A stretch of 44,214 nucleotides of DNA from a virus (Duplodnaviria; Caudoviricetes), in IMG/VR virus record IMGVR_UViG_3300049141_000137, positions 1-44,214 of that record, one strand, 5' to 3'. Both the position numbers and the translations under genes were made by a program. The number at the start of each line of letters is the position of its first letter. Position 1 is the first letter of the stretch. Positions 18,056 to 44,214 of this stretch are shown piece after piece. The notes beneath the pieces were generated by a model, which was not told where the DNA came from, did no database searches, and saw only the letters and a program-made list of their open reading frames with translations.

Positions 18056-18777
18056 CTAGGCGCTGTTCAGCCGCCCAAAGAAGGCCGTGAGTTCCTGCGC
18101 ATCGCTGAACTCCGACTCACGCTGTTCGGGCTGCGGCTCCGGTTCGCCGGGCCGTGGAATCGGTGGAGGAAGCTCAAGGTCTCGTGCGTCCTCGTCGGGG
18201 ACGTTCGCCTTGAGAAAAAGGAAGTTGGAAAGCTCAAGCGCGTCAGACACACGCGCGAGCATGTAACTGCTCTCGGGCCAGGAGGCACGTTCATCCATGG
18301 CCATCAGCAGAGTTGAGCGTCCGGGCTTACTCATCAGAGAACGGATGAGCACACCCACACGCCTAAGAGAAAGCCGTCCGCGCCACACGTCCAGGAGGTC
18401 AACCCCGAAGAACTCAAGCAAGTCCGCTTCAAGTTCATCGGGGAACTCCCGGATGACACGGACGACTGTTATCAGTTTCCCGACTCGTCGTCCTGCCCCT
18501 GTGCCTCGCCCATCTTGCGGGCGAACTCACCGAAGTCCTCGATGGTCGGGCGAGTGGAGAGGTAGGCCGCCCACTGGTCCTCGCCAAGGATGAGCTGAGT
18601 GGCAACAATCTCGTCATCCGTCATCAGCACCTCAAGAGGGAAGTGCTTCGGGTGAGGAAGCTTGAAGGTCAGGCCGCGGTGCTCGAACGATGCAAAGGTC
18701 TCGGTAGCTTCGGCCGCAGCCGCCGCAACCTTCTTCGTGCCGTTCTTCTTCGCACCAGACTTCTTCTCAGTAGGCAT
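18056..18777 (-). CDS. Tail assembly chaperone, long form (-1 frameshift product)
   Basis: G GGA AAC slippery heptamer at 18475-18481 just before the stop; the -1 frame is open into 18056-18421. Confidence 0.85.
18472..18777 (-). CDS. Tail assembly chaperone, short form
   Basis: Between the major tail and tape measure genes; ends DDESGN*. Confidence 0.88.
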   Translation of the reverse strand: MPTEKKSGAKKNGTKKVAAAAAEATETFASFEHRGLTFKLPHPKHFPLEVLMTDDEIVATQLILGEDQWAAYLSTRPTIEDFGEFARKMGEAQGQDDESGN

Positions 18778-22878: not shown

Positions 22879-24303
22879 CTACGCGGCCTTGCGGGCTGCG
22901 TTGCCCGAGTTGCCCTGAGGAGCCTTGCGGGCCGCCTTGTCTGCGTCCTGCTGGCCGTTAGGCTGTTCCGGCTGTGGTGCCGGGTACTTCTTCGCCAATT
23001 CCATTGCGTCCTTGGCGTCTTGCTCCCGCATGACGCGGAAGCGCTCAATCTGTTGTGGGGTATAACCCGCATCAAGAAGGAGCTGGTCTCTTGGTACGCC
23101 GATAAGCTGAGCCTTCAGAAGGGCGTCATAATGCTGGGCTTCGGTTCGGTTCTCAGGGTCACGCCAGATGACCTCTGCCCCGTGGGCGTCGGCCCTCTTG
23201 TCGCCCATAACCCGGAACGCGAGTCGCATGACCCTTTCCCAGGATTCACCGAAGTGCAGCATTCGTTCGCGAGTCTTGGCTATCAGTCCAGCCTCAGCAG
23301 AGGTGATGGACTCGCCAGACGGGGCCGTTCCGCCGTTCAGTAGGAAGTAGTGGAACGGAATCCGGCTGATGCTCGCCATGTGCTGTACGAGCATGTTTGT
23401 GAGATTCACGTAGTTCTTCAGGTCAGCCGCTTCAAACTGCCCAAACTTCACGTCGGGGTTCTCCGCCTGAAGGAGCTTGTCAACGGCGACCTTGTAAGGC
23501 TCGACAGGGCGCCCCTGGTCGTCCTCCTGGATCTCCAGGCCGGTGACGTACCTCTGTGGCCATGCCGCATACTCAGACGCCACCAGGGCGTCAGCCACGG
23601 TCTTATTGATCGCGTCAGCCAGAGGGATGACAACGGAAAGATCCGAGATCGGAGGTCCAGTCAGCCGAGACCGGTTGGGGATCGGAACTACCGGAGGCTC
23701 TCCGAGAGGGTTGCGGGCTTCCTTGTAGTCGCCCCACTGACCGGTCATGCCACTACCGGTGAAGACCTTTCCATCCCACCAGAGGGTGACGAACTCGCGT
23801 CCCCATTCATCCTGATAAAACTTGGCTGCGGCCTCGATGTCCCAGCGGCTTCCGGGCTTGTACTGGACAACCACGTTCTCAGCGCTCTCGACGGTGATAG
23901 TCGGCTGGCCGGCACTGTCCGCCCAAACGATGGCGTACGAGACTCCGTGAACCATCGCATCGAGGTGAGCAGCGTTCGACTCTGCGTCCAGGTGGTTACG
24001 CTGCCAGATCTCCCGAGCGTCCTTGTCGCCTCCGGGCTCGTCAGTCATCTGGAACCCGTCGATGAACATGCGCTCATTAACGCTGTCCACGATGAGCCCG
24101 CAGAAGTTGTCTGACCAGCCGTCAAAGATGCGGCCGAACTCGCTCTGATACTTGGCCTGAGCGAACACCATCTTTTGGTGCTTGCCGTCGTAGTAGTCCG
24201 AGCAGAAACGGAGATACGTCCTGCGGCGGAGTAGCTTGGAATGGAGCCAGTCAACCCACCCCGATGGGGTGTTGGGTGGAGACCCAACTTCAATATCGGC
24301 CAA
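22879..24303 (-). CDS. Portal protein (SPP1 gp6-like)
   Basis: YYDGKH, NFCGLIVD, IWQRN.LD, PVVP.PNR, SGE.I..AE.GL and FGESWE motifs. Confidence 0.93.
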   Translation of the reverse strand: MADIEVGSPPNTPSGWVDWLHSKLLRRRTYLRFCSDYYDGKHQKMVFAQAKYQSEFGRIFDGWSDNFCGLIVDSVNERMFIDGFQMTDEPGGDKDAREIWQRNHLDAESNAAHLDAMVHGVSYAIVWADSAGQPTITVESAENVVVQYKPGSRWDIEAAAKFYQDEWGREFVTLWWDGKVFTGSGMTGQWGDYKEARNPLGEPPVVPIPNRSRLTGPPISDLSVVIPLADAINKTVADALVASEYAAWPQRYVTGLEIQEDDQGRPVEPYKVAVDKLLQAENPDVKFGQFEAADLKNYVNLTNMLVQHMASISRIPFHYFLLNGGTAPSGESITSAEAGLIAKTRERMLHFGESWERVMRLAFRVMGDKRADAHGAEVIWRDPENRTEAQHYDALLKAQLIGVPRDQLLLDAGYTPQQIERFRVMREQDAKDAMELAKKYPAPQPEQPNGQQDADKAARKAPQGNSGNAARKAA

Positions 24304-24306
24304 CGG

Positions 24307-25874
24307 CTACCACCCCACTACTCGGGACCTCCGAATCTGCATTCGGCCATCAGCGATGGCGTCAGCTCTCGCCTCCAGGGCAAGCACGGCACATACGGCA
24401 AGGTCGATCTTCCTTTTGGATCTTGGGCTGTCCTTCTGAATGAGGAGGCCCTGAGGTACTTCACGAGTTACGGCGTTCAGCACGTGACGAGTAAGCCGGT
24501 AGTCTCCGTCGTGCTTTAGGTCGCCCACCATTGCGGCGGTACGGAATCGCTCAACGGCCTGCGTCATCCTCGTTGGCTTGTTCGTCCAGAACTCAAATAC
24601 GGTGTCGTCACCGTGCTCGATAGCCCAACGGCCGATGTTCTCTTGCCAATAAGGCGGGTCGGCATAGAGCCAGGCAACCCGGTACGTCTTGAAAGCGGTG
24701 TTGACTGCCGCCTCGACGGCGAGAACATCGACTTCCCAGTCATCTGGGGCGTTCTCAGGGCGCTCCCAAACACCGATGACGAACAGTTTGGCGTCACGCA
24801 ATCTGACTCCCACGAGACCTGTTGAGTCACCGCGGATCGATCCATCAAAGCCGATGGCTATTTGGTCGCCCGGCTTGATCGGGTCGTCCTCGGAGAAACA
24901 GGCGTCCCACTCGCTCTTACTCATCCAGCCGTCTGAAGACTCAGCGATCTGGTTGAAGTAGAAGCGGCAATAAGTGCTATCCGGCGTCGTCCGGTCGTGG
25001 AGGATGGTTCGTGTCAGGCCGTCGATGTCAGCCCAGGACGCGTCTCCATATGCCTCAACGAGAGCCGCGCGAACGGCCTCGGGGCTCCGGATGTCCTCAG
25101 GATCAATCGACCCCTCAAGGCAGTCGTAGAGCCAAATGCCCTGAGCCACCATCGCGGACTCGTGGATGATCTGGGCTACGCTGTCCTCGGAGGGGTTATA
25201 GGCGTTGGTCGTAGATACCCAGCGAGAACCGGCCTTCGTCGTCTTTTCGATATTCCGCTTCAGCACCTGGAAGAAGTCCGGGCCCCCGTTGCTGCCCACC
25301 CAGTGATGGCATTCGTCCATCAGACAAAACGATGGTCGATTTCCTTCGTTGGTGCGGCCGGCAGTGGCCTTTGGTTTGATGCTTCCGGGCTTACCGCTCT
25401 TGAACTGGACGACCATCTTGCCGATGTCCAGGCCGTAAATTGCTTCGGCTGGAGACTCCGAGAGCATTCCTCGGATCATGTCCATGGTTTGCTCGGTCTG
25501 GTCCAGCGCAGTGGCGCCGACCTGAACGACAGGCAGAGGGACAGGCTTACCGACAGGAAGGCCGAAGGCGTCGAAATGAGAGAACCTGCACGGGCCTAGG
25601 AATTCAACAATTGCGAGTGCCGCCAACAATGGAGTCTTGCTAAGCCCCAGCCCTTTGCTCGTCGGAGCGTAGCGGCTGAGTAGGTCCACCCCCCGTCAGG
25701 TCGGATGCTGTAGAACCACAGCACAAACCTCAACTGCTCGGGGGTGAATTGCCAGGGCTCACCGGCCCTGTCTCCATCCGGCTGGACAATGAACTTCTGA
25801 GCCCATCGGATGATGGAGTAACCAAGCGTCTCGTTAGGCTTCGGGACCCCTGCGGGCAGATTGCCTGTCTGCAA
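24307..25874 (-). CDS. terL: Terminase large subunit, interrupted by a 5-nt TTA-containing gap (25639-25643); 520 aa if bypassed
   Basis: Codons 1-77 end ...RRAKGWG; the other frame resumes KTPLLA..., with Walker B CLMDECHHW, nuclease IGFDGS...DST and KIDLAV. Confidence 0.9.
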
Positions 25875-25888
25875 GGATCACCGCCTAT

Positions 25889-26314
25889 CTAGGAGCCGTT
25901 CAGCAGCTTGTAAAGCTCCTCATCCATGTTCATCTCTTCGGGTTCCTCAGGGACGCCCGCGGGCTCTCCCTCGCCGGGCTTCTGGAAGGTCATTCGCAAT
26001 CTCGCGCGGTCCTCGACGGTCGCGCCCCACTTGGCGACGCGCTGACGGATTTCCCCAGCTAGCTTCAAGTCGCCCAGGAATAGGCCGTCTACGAGCTTGG
26101 TCGTCAGCTCCAGTTCAGCCCAGTCGGTCTCTGTCCAAGCCGCTGTCTGAGGGGCAGTGCTCCACGTCCGCCAGAAGCGCTTAGCTCCGGGGGTCGTGAT
26201 GCCGAGGCCCTTGGGCAGCTCGCGGCCGGGCTGGGGCTCCGCCGGCAACGTCTGTGCATTGGGATGGACGTTGCGCCTCTGCGCGTTGCCCTTGGGGGCT
26301 GGTCCTCGTGTCAT
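25889..26314 (-). CDS. terS: Terminase small subunit
   Basis: RGPAPK....RRN, W..W..AP....W...DW and EIRQR.AK.GAT.EDR.RLR motifs; upstream of terL. Confidence 0.85.
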   Translation of the reverse strand: MTRGPAPKGNAQRRNVHPNAQTLPAEPQPGRELPKGLGITTPGAKRFWRTWSTAPQTAAWTETDWAELELTTKLVDGLFLGDLKLAGEIRQRVAKWGATVEDRARLRMTFQKPGEGEPAGVPEEPEEMNMDEELYKLLNGS

Positions 26315-26530: not shown

Positions 26531-26606
26531 TGGTCTAGTCGGCAGGTCTCGAACCTGCGGCCTCCGGGTCCCAAACCCGGCGCTCTGCCTACTGAGCTAC
26601 GACCAG
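26531..26606 (-). tRNA. tRNA-Pro (TGG), CCA encoded
   Basis: Cloverleaf; anticodon arm CCGGG-TTTGGGA-CCCGG; TTCGA T-loop. Confidence 0.93.
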
Positions 26607-26749
26607 AAGCGGGGTGGCACGGTCGCTAGCCGTGCACCTCCCGAGGCGTCACCAGGAACCACCCCGTGACCACCTCCGGTGTGCGTCGCTACACCACACC
26701 CCTTGCCCTATCGTTGCGCGCTGGTTAGGCGCGCTATTGTCGGGCCAAG

Positions 26750-26822
26750 CTGAGCCGGTTGGATTCGAACCAACATCCCCCGGTTTTGGAGACCGGTGCT
26801 CTCCCAATTGAGCTACGTCCCA
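26750..26822 (-). tRNA. tRNA-Trp (CCA)
   Basis: CCGGT-CTCCAAA-ACCGG; one A-G mismatch in the acceptor stem; no encoded CCA. Confidence 0.88.
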
Positions 26823-26859
26823 CTGACGGCAGGGTGCCGGCGACCGCGTTACCCCTGCC

Positions 26860-26935
26860 TGGTGAATCTGGTTGGACTCGAACCAACGGCACCAGGATTA
26901 AGAGTCCCGTGCTCTACCAACTGAGCTACAGATTC
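26860..26935 (-). tRNA. tRNA-Lys (CTT), CCA encoded
   Basis: CGGGA-CTCTTAA-TCCTG; perfect acceptor stem. Confidence 0.93.
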
Positions 26936-26939
26936 AAAG

Positions 26940-27012
26940 TGGCGAGAACCGGGCTCGAACCGGTGACCTCCGGGTTATGAGCCCGGCGCGCTTCCAACTG
27001 CGCCATCCCGCT
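26940..27012 (-). tRNA. Initiator tRNA-fMet (CAT)
   Basis: Three consecutive G-C pairs in the anticodon stem and an unpaired A1/C72. Confidence 0.9.
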
Positions 27013-27016
27013 ACGG

Positions 27017-27088
27017 CTGACATGGCTGGACTCGAACCAGCAACCCGAGCATTAACAGTGCCCTGCTCTGCCATTGAGCTACACGTCA
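27017..27088 (-). tRNA. tRNA-Asn (GTT)
   Basis: GGGCA-CTGTTAA-TGCTC; G73. Confidence 0.92.
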
Positions 27089-27239
27089 TTAGACCGGCGG
27101 GCCGTACGGTAGACCGCCATCCCCGTTGCCCCGGTCCGTGGGCTCGGGTAACCAACCCGAGCCCTGTATGCCCCCGCTGAGACTCTTACGCGGCCCTGCC
27201 GCTGGTCCCGGTCATCCGCATACTTCCCAGCTCCAAGCC

Positions 27240-27452
27240 TCAAAGGCGCTCGCAAGAGTAGAAGACGACTGGGGCGCCCTCCTCGGGCACGTTAACGCCA
27301 CTATCCCGCAAGGTTGTGCATGCCGCTTTGTAAGCACCCAGGTATCTATCCTGGGCGTTGGCGGCTTTCGGGAAAGCCATTGCGAAACTCGATGTGGCGT
27401 TCCTGCGACCTGCGTCTAGGGTCAGGATGAAAAAGTAGGTAATCACCTGCAC
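27240..27452 (-). CDS. Small hypothetical protein embedded in the tRNA cluster
   Basis: 70 aa; YFFILTL...VVFYSCE pattern; no obvious RBS. Confidence 0.55.
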   Translation of the reverse strand: MQVITYFFILTLDAGRRNATSSFAMAFPKAANAQDRYLGAYKAACTTLRDSGVNVPEEGAPVVFYSCERL

Positions 27453-27480
27453 AGAGTATCAGCGGCACCATTGGAGCCTA

Positions 27481-27551
27481 GGCGCGTTACGGGATTCGAA
27501 CCCGTGTCACCTCCGGGCAGGAGGAGTCCTGAGCCACTAGACGAAACGCGC
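27481..27551 (-). tRNA. Non-canonical tRNA: Glu-type D arm, anticodon arm 2 nt short (5-bp stem with TGCCC loop, or 4-bp stem with GCC/Gly anticodon)
   Basis: GCGCGTT TC GTCT AGTGGCTCA GGAC T CCTCC TGCCC GGAGG TGAC ACGGG TTCGAAT CCCGT AACGCGC C. Confidence 0.8.
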
Positions 27552-27607
27552 GTCCCTTCGGCCACCTGATCAGGGCGACTTACCGGGACAGGGGAGCTAC
27601 CCCACTG

Positions 27608-27682
27608 TTGACCATCCAGGATTTGAACCTAGGACCCCCGCCTTATCAGGGCGGTGCTCTAACCGGGCTGAGCTAATGGCCA
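27608..27682 (-). tRNA. tRNA-Ile (GAT)
   Basis: CCGCC-CTGATAA-GGCGG; TTCAA T-loop. Confidence 0.92.
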
Positions 27683-27764
27683 TAGACCCGGCGGTGATCG
27701 GGCTGCGGTCCGATATCGCATACACCCACCGGGCTACCCCGTGTTAGTCGGCACGGGTACCTCG

Positions 27765-27838
27765 TCGGCCCCGGTGGATTCGAACCACCGACCTCCGGGA
27801 TTTCACTCCGGTGCTCTACTCGTCTGAGCTAGAGGCCG
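27765..27838 (-). tRNA. tRNA-Phe (GAA), atypical anticodon loop
   Basis: CCGGA-GTGAAAT-CCCGG; G32/U38 and an A31-C39 mismatch. Confidence 0.85.
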
Positions 27839-27839
27839 T

Positions 27840-28187
27840 TCACTGCTGCCGGCGGTCCTCTGCCGACTTCTCCTTGTGGCAGTCGTGGCAGAGGGTCTGT
27901 GCGTTGCTGAGCGTCCACGTACCGCCCTTGGCGATGGGTAGAACGTGGTCGACTTCCAGCCGTTCCCTAGCCCCGCAGCGGACACAGGCGAAGCCGTCCC
28001 GGACCAAGGCCCGAGGGCGAACCTGTCGGTCCCAGGCCCTCAAAACAGCGGGCTTGGTCTGGTTTCGGGCGCTCTTGCGAGCCCAAGGACGCTCAACCGG
28101 TGCATGGTCGGCGCACCGCCCTGCCTTGACAGTTCGTTGAACACACCTGGGTACGAGGCAGATTGAGGCAGCTCTAGGCATGCTCAC
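27840..28187 (-). CDS. HNH endonuclease (packaging-associated)
   Basis: RDGFACVRCG...EVDHVLP..KGG....NAQTLCHDCHKEKS. Confidence 0.93.
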   Translation of the reverse strand: MSMPRAASICLVPRCVQRTVKAGRCADHAPVERPWARKSARNQTKPAVLRAWDRQVRPRALVRDGFACVRCGARERLEVDHVLPIAKGGTWTLSNAQTLCHDCHKEKSAEDRRQQ

Positions 28188-32584: not shown

Positions 32585-32746
32585 GTGAGCGACACGAGCG
32601 CGGGCTATGGCCCCTCCTACTCGCGGCAGTGGCGCGGCAATCACCACATGTGGCAGGCCGCAGCCCGCAAGTACGACTTTCCGGTGACGACGTACAAGGT
32701 TGGTCCGAATGGTGAGCGAAAGCTCATCGAGACCACCAATCGCTAG
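32585..32746 (+). CDS. Small hypothetical protein (53 aa, not in the ORF track)
   Basis: GTG after AGGTGA; MSDTSAGYGPSYSRQW... Confidence 0.55.
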   Translation: MSDTSAGYGPSYSRQWRGNHHMWQAAARKYDFPVTTYKVGPNGERKLIETTNR

Positions 32747-33110
32747 AGTCCTCGCCCACTTCTACGGGTTTGAAACGAAGGCCACGAGGGGGCGAGTGAA
32801 AATCGCTTGCCCCCTCCCTTCGCATCCGGACTCCAATCCATCAGCGTCGGTGGATCTCGACAGGAACCGATGGAACTGCTTCGCGTGCAACCTATCGGAA
32901 GACTCATACGCCGTGATCATGAGGGAGGAAGGTATTGGCTTCACTGAAGCCAAAGAACGCGCATGTGCCGAATTCGGTGGAGACAGCGAAGCGGTACCAC
33001 CAGACGTATCAGGGAAGCCGGGCCGAGAAGTACATAGCAGCCCGCGGCCTCGCAGAGGTCGCAGCCCGGTTCGGCCTCGGCTTCGTGGATTCGGCTCAAC
33101 CTGGTCATGA
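32709..33110 (+). CDS. DNA primase zinc-binding (CHC2) part
   Basis: CP...H.D.NPSASV......WNCFAC. Confidence 0.85.
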   Translation: MVSESSSRPPIARVLAHFYGFETKATRGRVKIACPLPSHPDSNPSASVDLDRNRWNCFACNLSEDSYAVIMREEGIGFTEAKERACAEFGGDSEAVPPDVSGKPGREVHSSPRPRRGRSPVRPRLRGFGSTWS

Positions 33111-33627
33111 GCGCTACGCGGGAAGCCTCTGCATTCCGTACCTCCGCCCTGCTGGGGGAGAGGACGGAGTAGCCACATGCCGCTTCCGCTGCATCGCTGA
33201 CGAGTGCGTGAAGGACGCTGACGGCCTCTACCTCTTCCAGAAGGGCGAGAAGGAACGCCACCAGGGCCACGGCAAGTACCTGAGCCTCCCGGGGGATCCT
33301 CCAAGGCTCTACAACACGCCTGCCTTGATTGAGCCCAGCCCGTTCCTGGTGGTGGTTGAAGGCGAGTTCGACGCGCAGTCGTGGGCCGTCGTCGGGGTGC
33401 CGGCGGTTGGAGCCCCCGGCACCGGCACATGGCGGGACTACTGGACGCCTGCGCTGCTCGGTTACGAGGTGGTCTACCTGATAGCTGAGGACGAACCCGG
33501 ATTGGTCTTCATGGACGGCCTAGCGGCCGACCTGCCTAACGGCAAGGTCATCAAGACTGATGGGGACTCGAATCAAATCCTCATCAATCAGGGGCCTGAA
33601 GCGCTGAAGAGAAGGATCGGGCTGTGA
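32935..33627 (+). CDS. DNA primase TOPRIM part
   Basis: YIAARGL, L.IPY, KYLSLPG...RLYN, VVEGEFDA, AVG.PG motifs; TTG behind GGAGGAAGG. Confidence 0.88.
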   Translation: MASLKPKNAHVPNSVETAKRYHQTYQGSRAEKYIAARGLAEVAARFGLGFVDSAQPGHERYAGSLCIPYLRPAGGEDGVATCRFRCIADECVKDADGLYLFQKGEKERHQGHGKYLSLPGDPPRLYNTPALIEPSPFLVVVEGEFDAQSWAVVGVPAVGAPGTGTWRDYWTPALLGYEVVYLIAEDEPGLVFMDGLAADLPNGKVIKTDGDSNQILINQGPEALKRRIGL

Positions 33628-43790: not shown

Positions 43791-44214
43791 CCGCCCCTCT
43801 TGGGACAGGTGGGCGCTCGGTATTGCTGACGCTGTAGCGCCTCGGGGGGACTGCACCAGATCACGCGTTGGTGCGGTCCTCCTGGACCGCAGGCGCCGCG
43901 TAGTCATGTCGGGGATGAACGGGACGGTCCCCGGTGAGAAAGGCTGCCTAGCGGGTGCGTGTCCGCGAGGGCGGCTGACGTACGAGCAGATACCCGCTGG
44001 CAGCGATTACGGGAACTGCATTGCGATCCATGCCGAAGAGAACTTGTTGATCAACGCCAGGCGGGAAGACCTGGAAGGCGGGACGGTCTACATAACTCGT
44101 GCCCCGTGCTACCGGTGCTTGCCTCGCCTCAAGGCGGCAGGGGTCTGGCGGGTGGTGTGGCGGACTGAGACCGACTACGAAGCGAAGGTTCTGGATTGGG
44201 GGACGCGCCCTTGA
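43726..44214 (+). CDS. dCMP deaminase
   Basis: RPSWD, CTR..VGAVL, HAEEN, PCYRC. Confidence 0.93.
   Translation: MSGGTESGGISSTTESGTTLTSRPSWDRWALGIADAVAPRGDCTRSRVGAVLLDRRRRVVMSGMNGTVPGEKGCLAGACPRGRLTYEQIPAGSDYGNCIAIHAEENLLINARREDLEGGTVYITRAPCYRCLPRLKAAGVWRVVWRTETDYEAKVLDWGTRP

Follow-up and report, generated by a model that had tools for sequence, protein, structure and literature searches.

Can a phage still produce a full-length large terminase when the Walker A motif of the gene is split by five nucleotides that open with TTA? The question is raised by terL in the window, by which we mean the whole 44,214-nt stretch of DNA analysed here. As a partial phage genome of 44 kb, the window is collinear with its closest named relative, Streptomyces phage Success (85% nucleotide identity over terL), and ∼13 kb shorter. 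It ends inside a dCMP deaminase gene at 44214 and the tyrosine recombinase region of Success lies beyond that end, so that a temperate lifestyle is suggested by the relatives. The contig comes without a host record; a Streptomyces host is likely, given that Success is a Streptomyces phage and that the same gap occurs in Streptomyces prophages. In a host of the Streptomyces type, UUA is the rarest codon and is read by the bldA tRNA. The locus is arranged as follows.

25889..26314, minus strand: terminase small subunit, adjoining terL upstream, 94% identity to Success gp49
25644..25874, minus strand: 5′ part of terL, 77 codons from a TTG start, ending ...RRAKGWG, the first half of Walker A
25644..25646, minus strand: GGC (Gly77), the putative take-off codon
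25639..25643, minus strand: TTAGC, the 5-nt coding gap, with the hungry TTA at 25643-25641
25641-25639, minus strand: AGC, the putative landing triplet, overlapping the hungry TTA by one base
25596..25598, minus strand: TAG, the zero-frame stop, 15 codons past take-off if UUA is decoded, closing a 92-aa product
24307..25638, minus strand: 3′ part of terL, 443 codons, starting at AAG, which encodes the Walker A Lys and is the putative resume codon, and including Walker B and the nuclease domain
22879..24303, minus strand: portal protein, intact, adjoining terL downstream

The minus strand reads AAG GGC TGG GGC TTAGC AAG ACT CCA, which divides Walker A as KGWG/KT. An earlier note on this DNA had stated that removal of TTAGC restores KGWGKT and a 520-aa terminase, and that reading through UUA gives 92 residues ending at 25596. 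Both statements held on rereading: 77 and 443 codons add up to 520, just as the intact Success terminase has 520 residues, and TAG occupies 25598-25596. The 5′ part matches phrog_9 (terminase large subunit) and is 91% identical to residues 1–77 of Success gp50; the P-loop of HK97 TerL aligns with the motif in an alignment made with the Success homologue protein. When aligned with Success, Ponzi and Ibantik, the window terL is longer by exactly 5 bases, whose placement is ambiguous (TTAGC, CTTAG or GCTTA). Comparison of 54 Success proteins with the window leaves terL as the sole frame-broken core or structural gene, as the note had held for the structural genes; the poorly conserved Success genes 37 and 38 gave messy partial matches. 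No second gap is present in the window terL. Elsewhere in the window, the DNA primase lies in two overlapping frames (32700-33627), like Success genes 29 and 30, and the tail assembly chaperone pair (18056-18777) has the usual frameshift layout, the joined product being annotated in Success.

The suggested count of in-frame TTA codons returned one in 11,645 codons of 43 window genes, against 101 out-of-frame TTA triplets. This lone codon sits upstream of the start of the Success homologue and probably falls outside its gene. No tRNA-Leu is found among the eight tRNAs of the window, whose cluster lies within the contig, in agreement with the claim that the phage encodes no tRNA-Leu(UAA). The eight genes (26531-27838) include Gly and Met where Success has Glu and Asp, and tRNA sets differ widely across the window's clade.

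The insert is confirmed as real and not an assembly error. Sequencing run X1, the probable source (contig depth 31), shows no indel at the insert. In run X2, from another study, a 60-kb contig of depth 81 is 93% identical (146 differences in 2101 bases) and retains all five insert letters while adjacent positions differ; third codon positions hold 33 of the 40 differences listed. The evidence from both runs consists of contigs, in which rare variants would be hidden. Four further runs with small shares (X3-X6) gave relatives or nothing. The 3′ part of terL is under purifying selection, with dN/dS of 0.06–0.10 (0.06–0.08 against gapped relatives), and values of 0.03–0.16 were obtained in 20 of 21 gapped pairs, the exception being L016/L130 (0.83).

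Most close relatives are intact at the site (37 of 45, including the nearest ones by tree). The tree, from which L045, L095 and L139 were left out, interleaves gapped and intact genes, and the near-identical sisters L203 (gapped) and L204 (intact) differ within the upstream patch. The window terL is nearer to gapped relatives only over codons −45 to −1 and nearer to intact ones elsewhere; over the last 15 codons its similarity is 0.84–0.93 to gapped versus 0.69–0.82 to intact genes. With the likeness to gapped relatives limited to this patch, the gap could be a recent arrival, and for the window itself dN/dS is then weaker proof that selection has acted since the break.

Is the break peculiar to this phage? 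Our census of terminases drew on an unbiased fetch of homologues, a genus sample and pattern scans run over viral, genome and metagenome contigs; tblastn served to confirm the terminase sites. The sample is non-random, since two scans required TTA and all required fixed flanking codons. Non-terminase pattern matches (12 of 38, 25 of 52 and similar proportions in later scans) and L381, with a single A in an A run, were left out. The census holds at least 262 distinct terminase sites: at least 163 are intact, at least 95, including the window and the published cases, are gapped at G/K, and at least 3 are gapped at K/T, one codon later. Comparison of homologous terL genes, which the earlier note had called for, thus finds TTA-led gaps at the same site in at least 52 of them. 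At least 27 confirmed TTA-gapped genes come from named genomes (Streptomyces 21, Kitasatospora 4, Lentzea 1 and Salininema 1), and the laboratory-isolated phages phiHau3, GreenWeasel and BroPlease carry a TTA-led gap at the terminase G/K junction.

A sample of 401 Streptomyces genomes gave 61 matches, namely 49 ungapped, 8 gapped and 4 probably due to chance; TTA leads five of the eight gaps (two of these genomes were already known from an earlier genome scan), and TGA, TAA and CCA lead one each. A phylum-wide sample of 401 genomes gave 12 matches, of which the seed genome alone had a clearly terminase-like gap. The exact 5-nt pattern had no match in metagenome contigs, where a wider pattern gave 80 loci and 11 new distinct gapped terminases. 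Two stop-led loci searched by BLAST against named phages had top relatives of only 63–70%.

The gaps at G/K comprise at least 50 distinct strings of 4–13 nt. Among the matches listed, the first triplet is TTA in 52, a stop codon in 33 (TGA 16, TAG 13, TAA 4) and another sense codon in 10, including CCA (4), AGG (2), AGA (2), CTA (1) and GAT (1). The last triplet, among the same matches, is GGC (53), GGT (20), AGC (15), GGA (4), GAC (2) or CGC (1), so that GGN ends 77 of 95 gaps, and all 18 mismatched landings end in C. The take-off codon is GGC or GGT in 92 of the 95 gaps listed, and GGG occurs there in none of these versus 25 of the 163 intact sites. C-ending mismatched landings and the lack of GGG take-off point to re-pairing by tRNA-Gly(GCC) with at least two firm pairs.

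In-frame gaps, among the matches listed, number 16 of 33 when stop-led and none of 62 when sense-led (15 of 27 versus 0 of 23 distinct strings, p 8e-6, a value that overstates independence, as do the other p-values, because the sites are related). Their confinement to stop-led gaps is expected if read-through must never add residues to the P-loop. The 5-nt class has 15 members among the matches listed (TTAGC 8, TAGGT 4, and TAGGC, TGAGC and CTAGC). All of them end in GC or GT, so that the third base of the slow codon is also the first base of the landing triplet. TTAGC itself was found, among the matches listed, at eight distinct loci that share 31–93% protein identity, four of them in Streptomyces genomes. 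The short gap and mismatched landing had both been called unusual. The latter is not, with AGC in S. catenulae and in 15 of the 95 gaps among the matches listed; the former stands as a peculiarity, in that the landing overlaps the hungry codon.

Some relatives show further variations. L205, L220 and L221 read AAG TTAG ACN, a 4-nt gap with Lys take-off and a probable UAG landing mismatched at the first position, while L058 and L063 have a 4-nt AGGC gap that opens with AGG, a rare Arg codon, and offers a perfectly matched GGC landing overlapping it. L045 combines an 11-nt GAT-led gap with an apparent intein, recognised by eye, slightly downstream in the same terminase. A second break, ∼100 codons past Walker A and just before Walker B, consists of a 41–53-nt insert without a TTA lead that folds as one long hairpin (−38 to −55 kcal/mol). 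It is carried by L002 (Ponzi), L016, L129, L130, L144, L145, L159, L165, L222, L208 and L225; its length is in-frame-like by rough count in L208 and L225, and in the isolated phage Ponzi the gene is annotated as two. Another second gap, of the phiHau3 g7/g8 type, follows EGARS with Ser take-off and 10 nt (7 nt in L034) in L027, L028, L034, L049, L093, L125, L128, L155, L158 and L638; in L049 and L093 the first gap is TGA-led and the second TTA-led. Among those of the close relatives L176-L225 that cover the site, gaps occur in 6 of 10 records with isolate-style identifiers versus 2 of 35 with metagenome-style ones, hinting, if identifier style is a fair guide to origin, that gaps are enriched in prophages.

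Smith et al. (2013) reportedly proposed UUA-led bypass candidates in large terminases of the phiHau3 type.

Antonov et al. (2023) described three UUA-gapped genes among 100 terminases (PMC10732093): phiHau3 TTA_CTCCGGT, StrepC.1 TTA_CCGGC and S. catenulae TTA_TAGC. This precedent, which the earlier note had mentioned for the phiHau3 terminase, proved to concern the same junction (g6/g7). The full-length g6/g7 product was seen in Streptomyces; in E. coli, with UUA changed to UAA, mass spectrometry identified the junction peptide (PMC10732093, sections 3.5-3.6). The published proof of bypass concerns this E. coli experiment on the UAA version of a 10-nt gap whose landing codon is matched. In that work the resume Lys codon was changed because trypsin cuts there (PMC10732093), and for the same reason the tryptic junction peptide GWGK/... 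proposed for the window would be cleaved at its resume Lys. A search of the accessible part of the PMC10732093 supplement gave no match to TTAGCAAG, and we found neither a 5-nt nor a natural stop-led case in the literature searched, whose coverage excludes most subscription journals.

The window shares with phiHau3, StrepC.1 and S. catenulae the gene family, the KGWG/K junction and a UUA after the Gly take-off codon, avoided elsewhere, together with a Gly-like, near-cognate landing codon and an early zero-frame stop. The proposed 5′ stem-loop and internal Shine-Dalgarno (SD) motif of the phiHau3 type are found in the window's clade; the contrast in them between gapped and intact genes does not extend across the KDP group, to which the window's terminase clade has 31–43% identity. 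AGC is the landing codon in both S. catenulae and the window and matches GGC at positions 2 and 3, not fully; the 8-nt gap of StrepC.1 is in the same frame class as the 5-nt one. The window differs in gap length (5 nt versus the published 10, 8 and 7), which is why its landing overlaps the hungry codon, in a far stronger SD motif 42 nt upstream, and in having no second gap. The family described here also holds natural stop-led and other-codon-led members, which are not reported in the accessible text of PMC10732093. The window gap appears to work like the phiHau3-type terminase bypass and, by every testable feature, to belong with it.

Two upstream elements stand out in the window.

25686..25694, minus strand: internal Shine-Dalgarno-like motif GGGGGGTGG, a candidate stimulator lying 42 nt ahead of the end of the take-off codon
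25646..25680, minus strand: predicted 5′ hairpin, CUCAGCC/GGCUGGG stem with inner GCUC/GAGC, the 3′ arm ending on the first base of the take-off codon

A strong SD-like motif, defined as pairing of −10 kcal/mol or better with what we take to be the anti-SD motif, is present in all 19 sense-led gapped genes and in none of 39 intact genes of the window's clade; it had been spotted by eye beforehand, so that the p-value is not blind. Its distance is 42 nt in 17 of the 19 and 51 nt in two. Gly-Arg-Trp is written GGG AGG TGG in gapped L016, L129, L130 and L136 and GGC CGG TGG in intact Ponzi and L237, which marks the motif as a nucleotide-level signal. The contrast recurs in several separate parts of the tree, including the sisters L203/L204.

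The hairpin is the weaker signal. Its energy in the window is −18.7 kcal/mol (z −2.2 against synonymous resampling), and the clade medians are −18.95 in gapped versus −13.0 kcal/mol in intact genes (z −1.6 versus 0.04). Against dinucleotide shuffles, however, the region is not significant (z 0 to 1.5, best −1.0), and the outer stem is fully paired in 8 of the 39 intact genes too. In the larger, distant KDP clade we found no overall SD contrast (p 0.54), and the hairpin was weaker in gapped genes, the intact set there having been chosen with a stem-biased pattern; the sole difference lay in the peptide KGVxQ, where GGA was used by 12 of 22 sense-led gapped versus 2 of 26 intact genes. Neither contrast was upheld in two stop-led KTP/KSP genes. 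AAAGG just upstream of take-off is fixed by Lys-Gly and so cannot be judged as an SD. Folding of the window and the family gave no 3′ stimulatory structure.

We propose that a programmed +5 bypass of the coding gap yields the full 520-residue terminase, a reading to which we give a probability of about 0.85. The sequence of events suggested by the earlier note (take-off at GGC, hungry UUA, landing at AGC, resumption at AAG) fits the pattern of the family, as far as sequence comparison can tell. A ribosome reaching GGC (Gly77) with UUA in the A site would stall because the tRNA for UUA is scarce; peptidyl-tRNA-Gly(GCC) would release, slide 5 nt and re-pair at AGC via positions 2 and 3, and decoding would continue from the Walker A lysine codon, AAG. 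The hairpin might close only after take-off, behind the ribosome, as an analogy with gene 60 (PMC7026636) suggests; together with the strong internal SD just 5′ of it, it may promote the stall and block back-sliding. Ribosomes that decode UUA would terminate 15 codons later, so that the full-length yield would drop with a growing supply of charged bldA tRNA, the tRNA-Leu(UAA) competing with the hop. The isoacceptor that would make the hop is also encoded by the phage.

27481..27551, minus strand: phage tRNA-Gly(GCC)

This gene was rejected as a constant partner of the gap, a phage tRNA-Gly being absent from the available stretches of most gapped relatives (34 loci scanned).

Could the frame be restored, or the break explained, in another way? 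The nearest relatives, Success among them, are intact and the contig is of soil-metagenome origin, as would suit a sequencing error or a plain pseudogene. We find this hardly credible for an insert that is retained in an independent contig and shared by seven other distinct loci, in a gene under purifying selection, with non-random first and last gap triplets. A −1 ribosomal frameshift at the Gly-Leu codons would suffice to correct a 5-nt insert, at the cost of two extra P-loop residues, and four of the eight TTAGC loci do have a heptamer of the X XXY YYZ form, G GGU UUA. The window and the three others read G GGC UUA (GGGCTTA), which is non-canonical, and no 3′ structure was found. Such a heptamer is found in 8 of 33 gaps of this frame class and in 6 of 49 of the other class, where it would be useless, and no sense-led in-frame insert was seen in 95 gaps among the matches listed, which suggests that extra P-loop residues are not tolerated. 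Nor would such a shift account for the conserved final GC or for gaps of 4, 6, 7, 9, 10 and 13 nt, and we regard it as improbable. Less probable still is a pair of separate polypeptides, the 3′ part having its own start. From a GTG at 25689 onward the 3′ frame has no stop (460 aa), and the strong SD-like motif is close by. But this GTG lies inside the motif, and a 7-nt gap would put it out of frame; relatives do not conserve the leader peptide and have CTT or CTC in place of the nearby TTG codons, and the P-loop itself is cut by the break.

The purpose of the proposed bypass is a separate matter from its mechanism. UUA seems to be one of several interchangeable slow codons: TGA-, TAA- and CCA-led gaps are present in Streptomyces genomes, and the window's own clade has gaps led by CTA and CCA that share its upstream signals. 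As any slow codon would serve in the same hosts and clade, an adaptive developmental (bldA) switch is a possibility against which the odds lean somewhat. We come close to an even judgement on a selfish, protective or output-lowering cassette in which UUA is just slow and has no developmental meaning; in one protective version, as proposed for T4 gene 60, the P-loop would be shielded from a homing nuclease. Stop-, CCA-, CTA-, AGA- and AGG-led versions, some in Streptomyces genomes, TTA-led gaps in Lentzea and Salininema too, the interleaving of gapped and intact genes with sisters L203/L204 differing in the upstream patch, the status of terminase P-loops as intein hot spots (PMC5050341) and the gene 60 precedent (PMC5009743) are all consistent with such a cassette. 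Yet terS and terL adjoin in the window without an intervening gene, and no extra nuclease gene could be linked to TTAGC loci by a crude motif screen. TTA also leads 52 of 95 gaps among the matches listed, in a sampling that favours TTA, and three of six in the Streptomyces sample when the two previously known genomes are left out; among the matches listed, TTA-led gaps are never in frame. An intein at the P-loop was rejected as well, with none in 60 KGWGK-Cys matches of the terminase family. The limited tests made (motif screen and intein check) found no homing driver: neither between terS and terL nor before the portal gene is there a homing endonuclease, the neighbour screen being crude, and the HNH gene at 27840-28187 is common to the window and intact Success.

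The bypass proposed here resembles that of T4 gene 60 in peptidyl-tRNA-Gly take-off, a slow A-site codon and upstream mRNA refolding that gives direction (PMC7026636, PMC5009743). The A-site codon of gene 60 is a stop, as in 33 relatives among the matches listed. The gene 60 gap, at 50 nt, is ten times longer, and the window has a mismatched landing and lacks a take-off stem-loop in the gap, matched GGA codons and any 3′ structure that we could find. Synthetic hops at stop or hungry codons in E. coli and the mitochondrial byps of Magnusiomyces are likewise short forward hops, which cross a stop or unassigned codon with similar two-out-of-three re-pairing (PMC5009743); unlike the synthetic E. 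coli hops, the window gap is natural, conserved and in an essential phage gene. According to the accessible text of a 2016 review, no natural in-frame stop hopping was known (PMC5009743); 16 natural stop-led in-frame gaps occur in the relatives among the matches listed.

A regulatory use of bypassing has been named a goal still to be reached, for which Streptomyces phages are rated the most promising (PMC5009743). bldA-linked control of terminase bypass is a published hypothesis, and its authors say that regulatory bypassing is unproven (PMC10732093). Their study had three genes, the signals of which could not be dissected, and the proposed phiHau3 stem-loop and SD could not be mutated (PMC10732093). 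Against these three genes in the print available to us, at least 95 gaps at G/K are collected here, and natural variants already exchange slow codon, gap length and landing codon. With these variants, and with the distal SD as a candidate stimulator set apart by its synonymous codons, the regulatory question becomes directly testable. New with respect to the literature searched are an overlapping 5-nt form maintained in different lineages, a family of this size and variety with natural stop-led and in-frame members, and the codon-level upstream SD. The 5-nt form probes the minimal hop length and whether two-base re-pairing that overlaps the A-site codon suffices. Gapped terminases are annotated as split or hypothetical genes and can pass for dead prophages.

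A bolder idea, which we consider unlikely on present evidence, is that of a near-minimal programmed hop, in which a portable ∼130-nt cassette (distal SD, hairpin, Gly take-off, slow codon and overlapping landing) with a swappable first-codon sensor recombines between phage terminase genes. If so, UUA would couple packaging to the bldA tRNA and host development, stop codons would couple it to release-factor activity, and CCA, CUA, AGA and AGG to other tRNAs. Bypassing as a means of regulation would in that case be common in phages and not a T4 curiosity.
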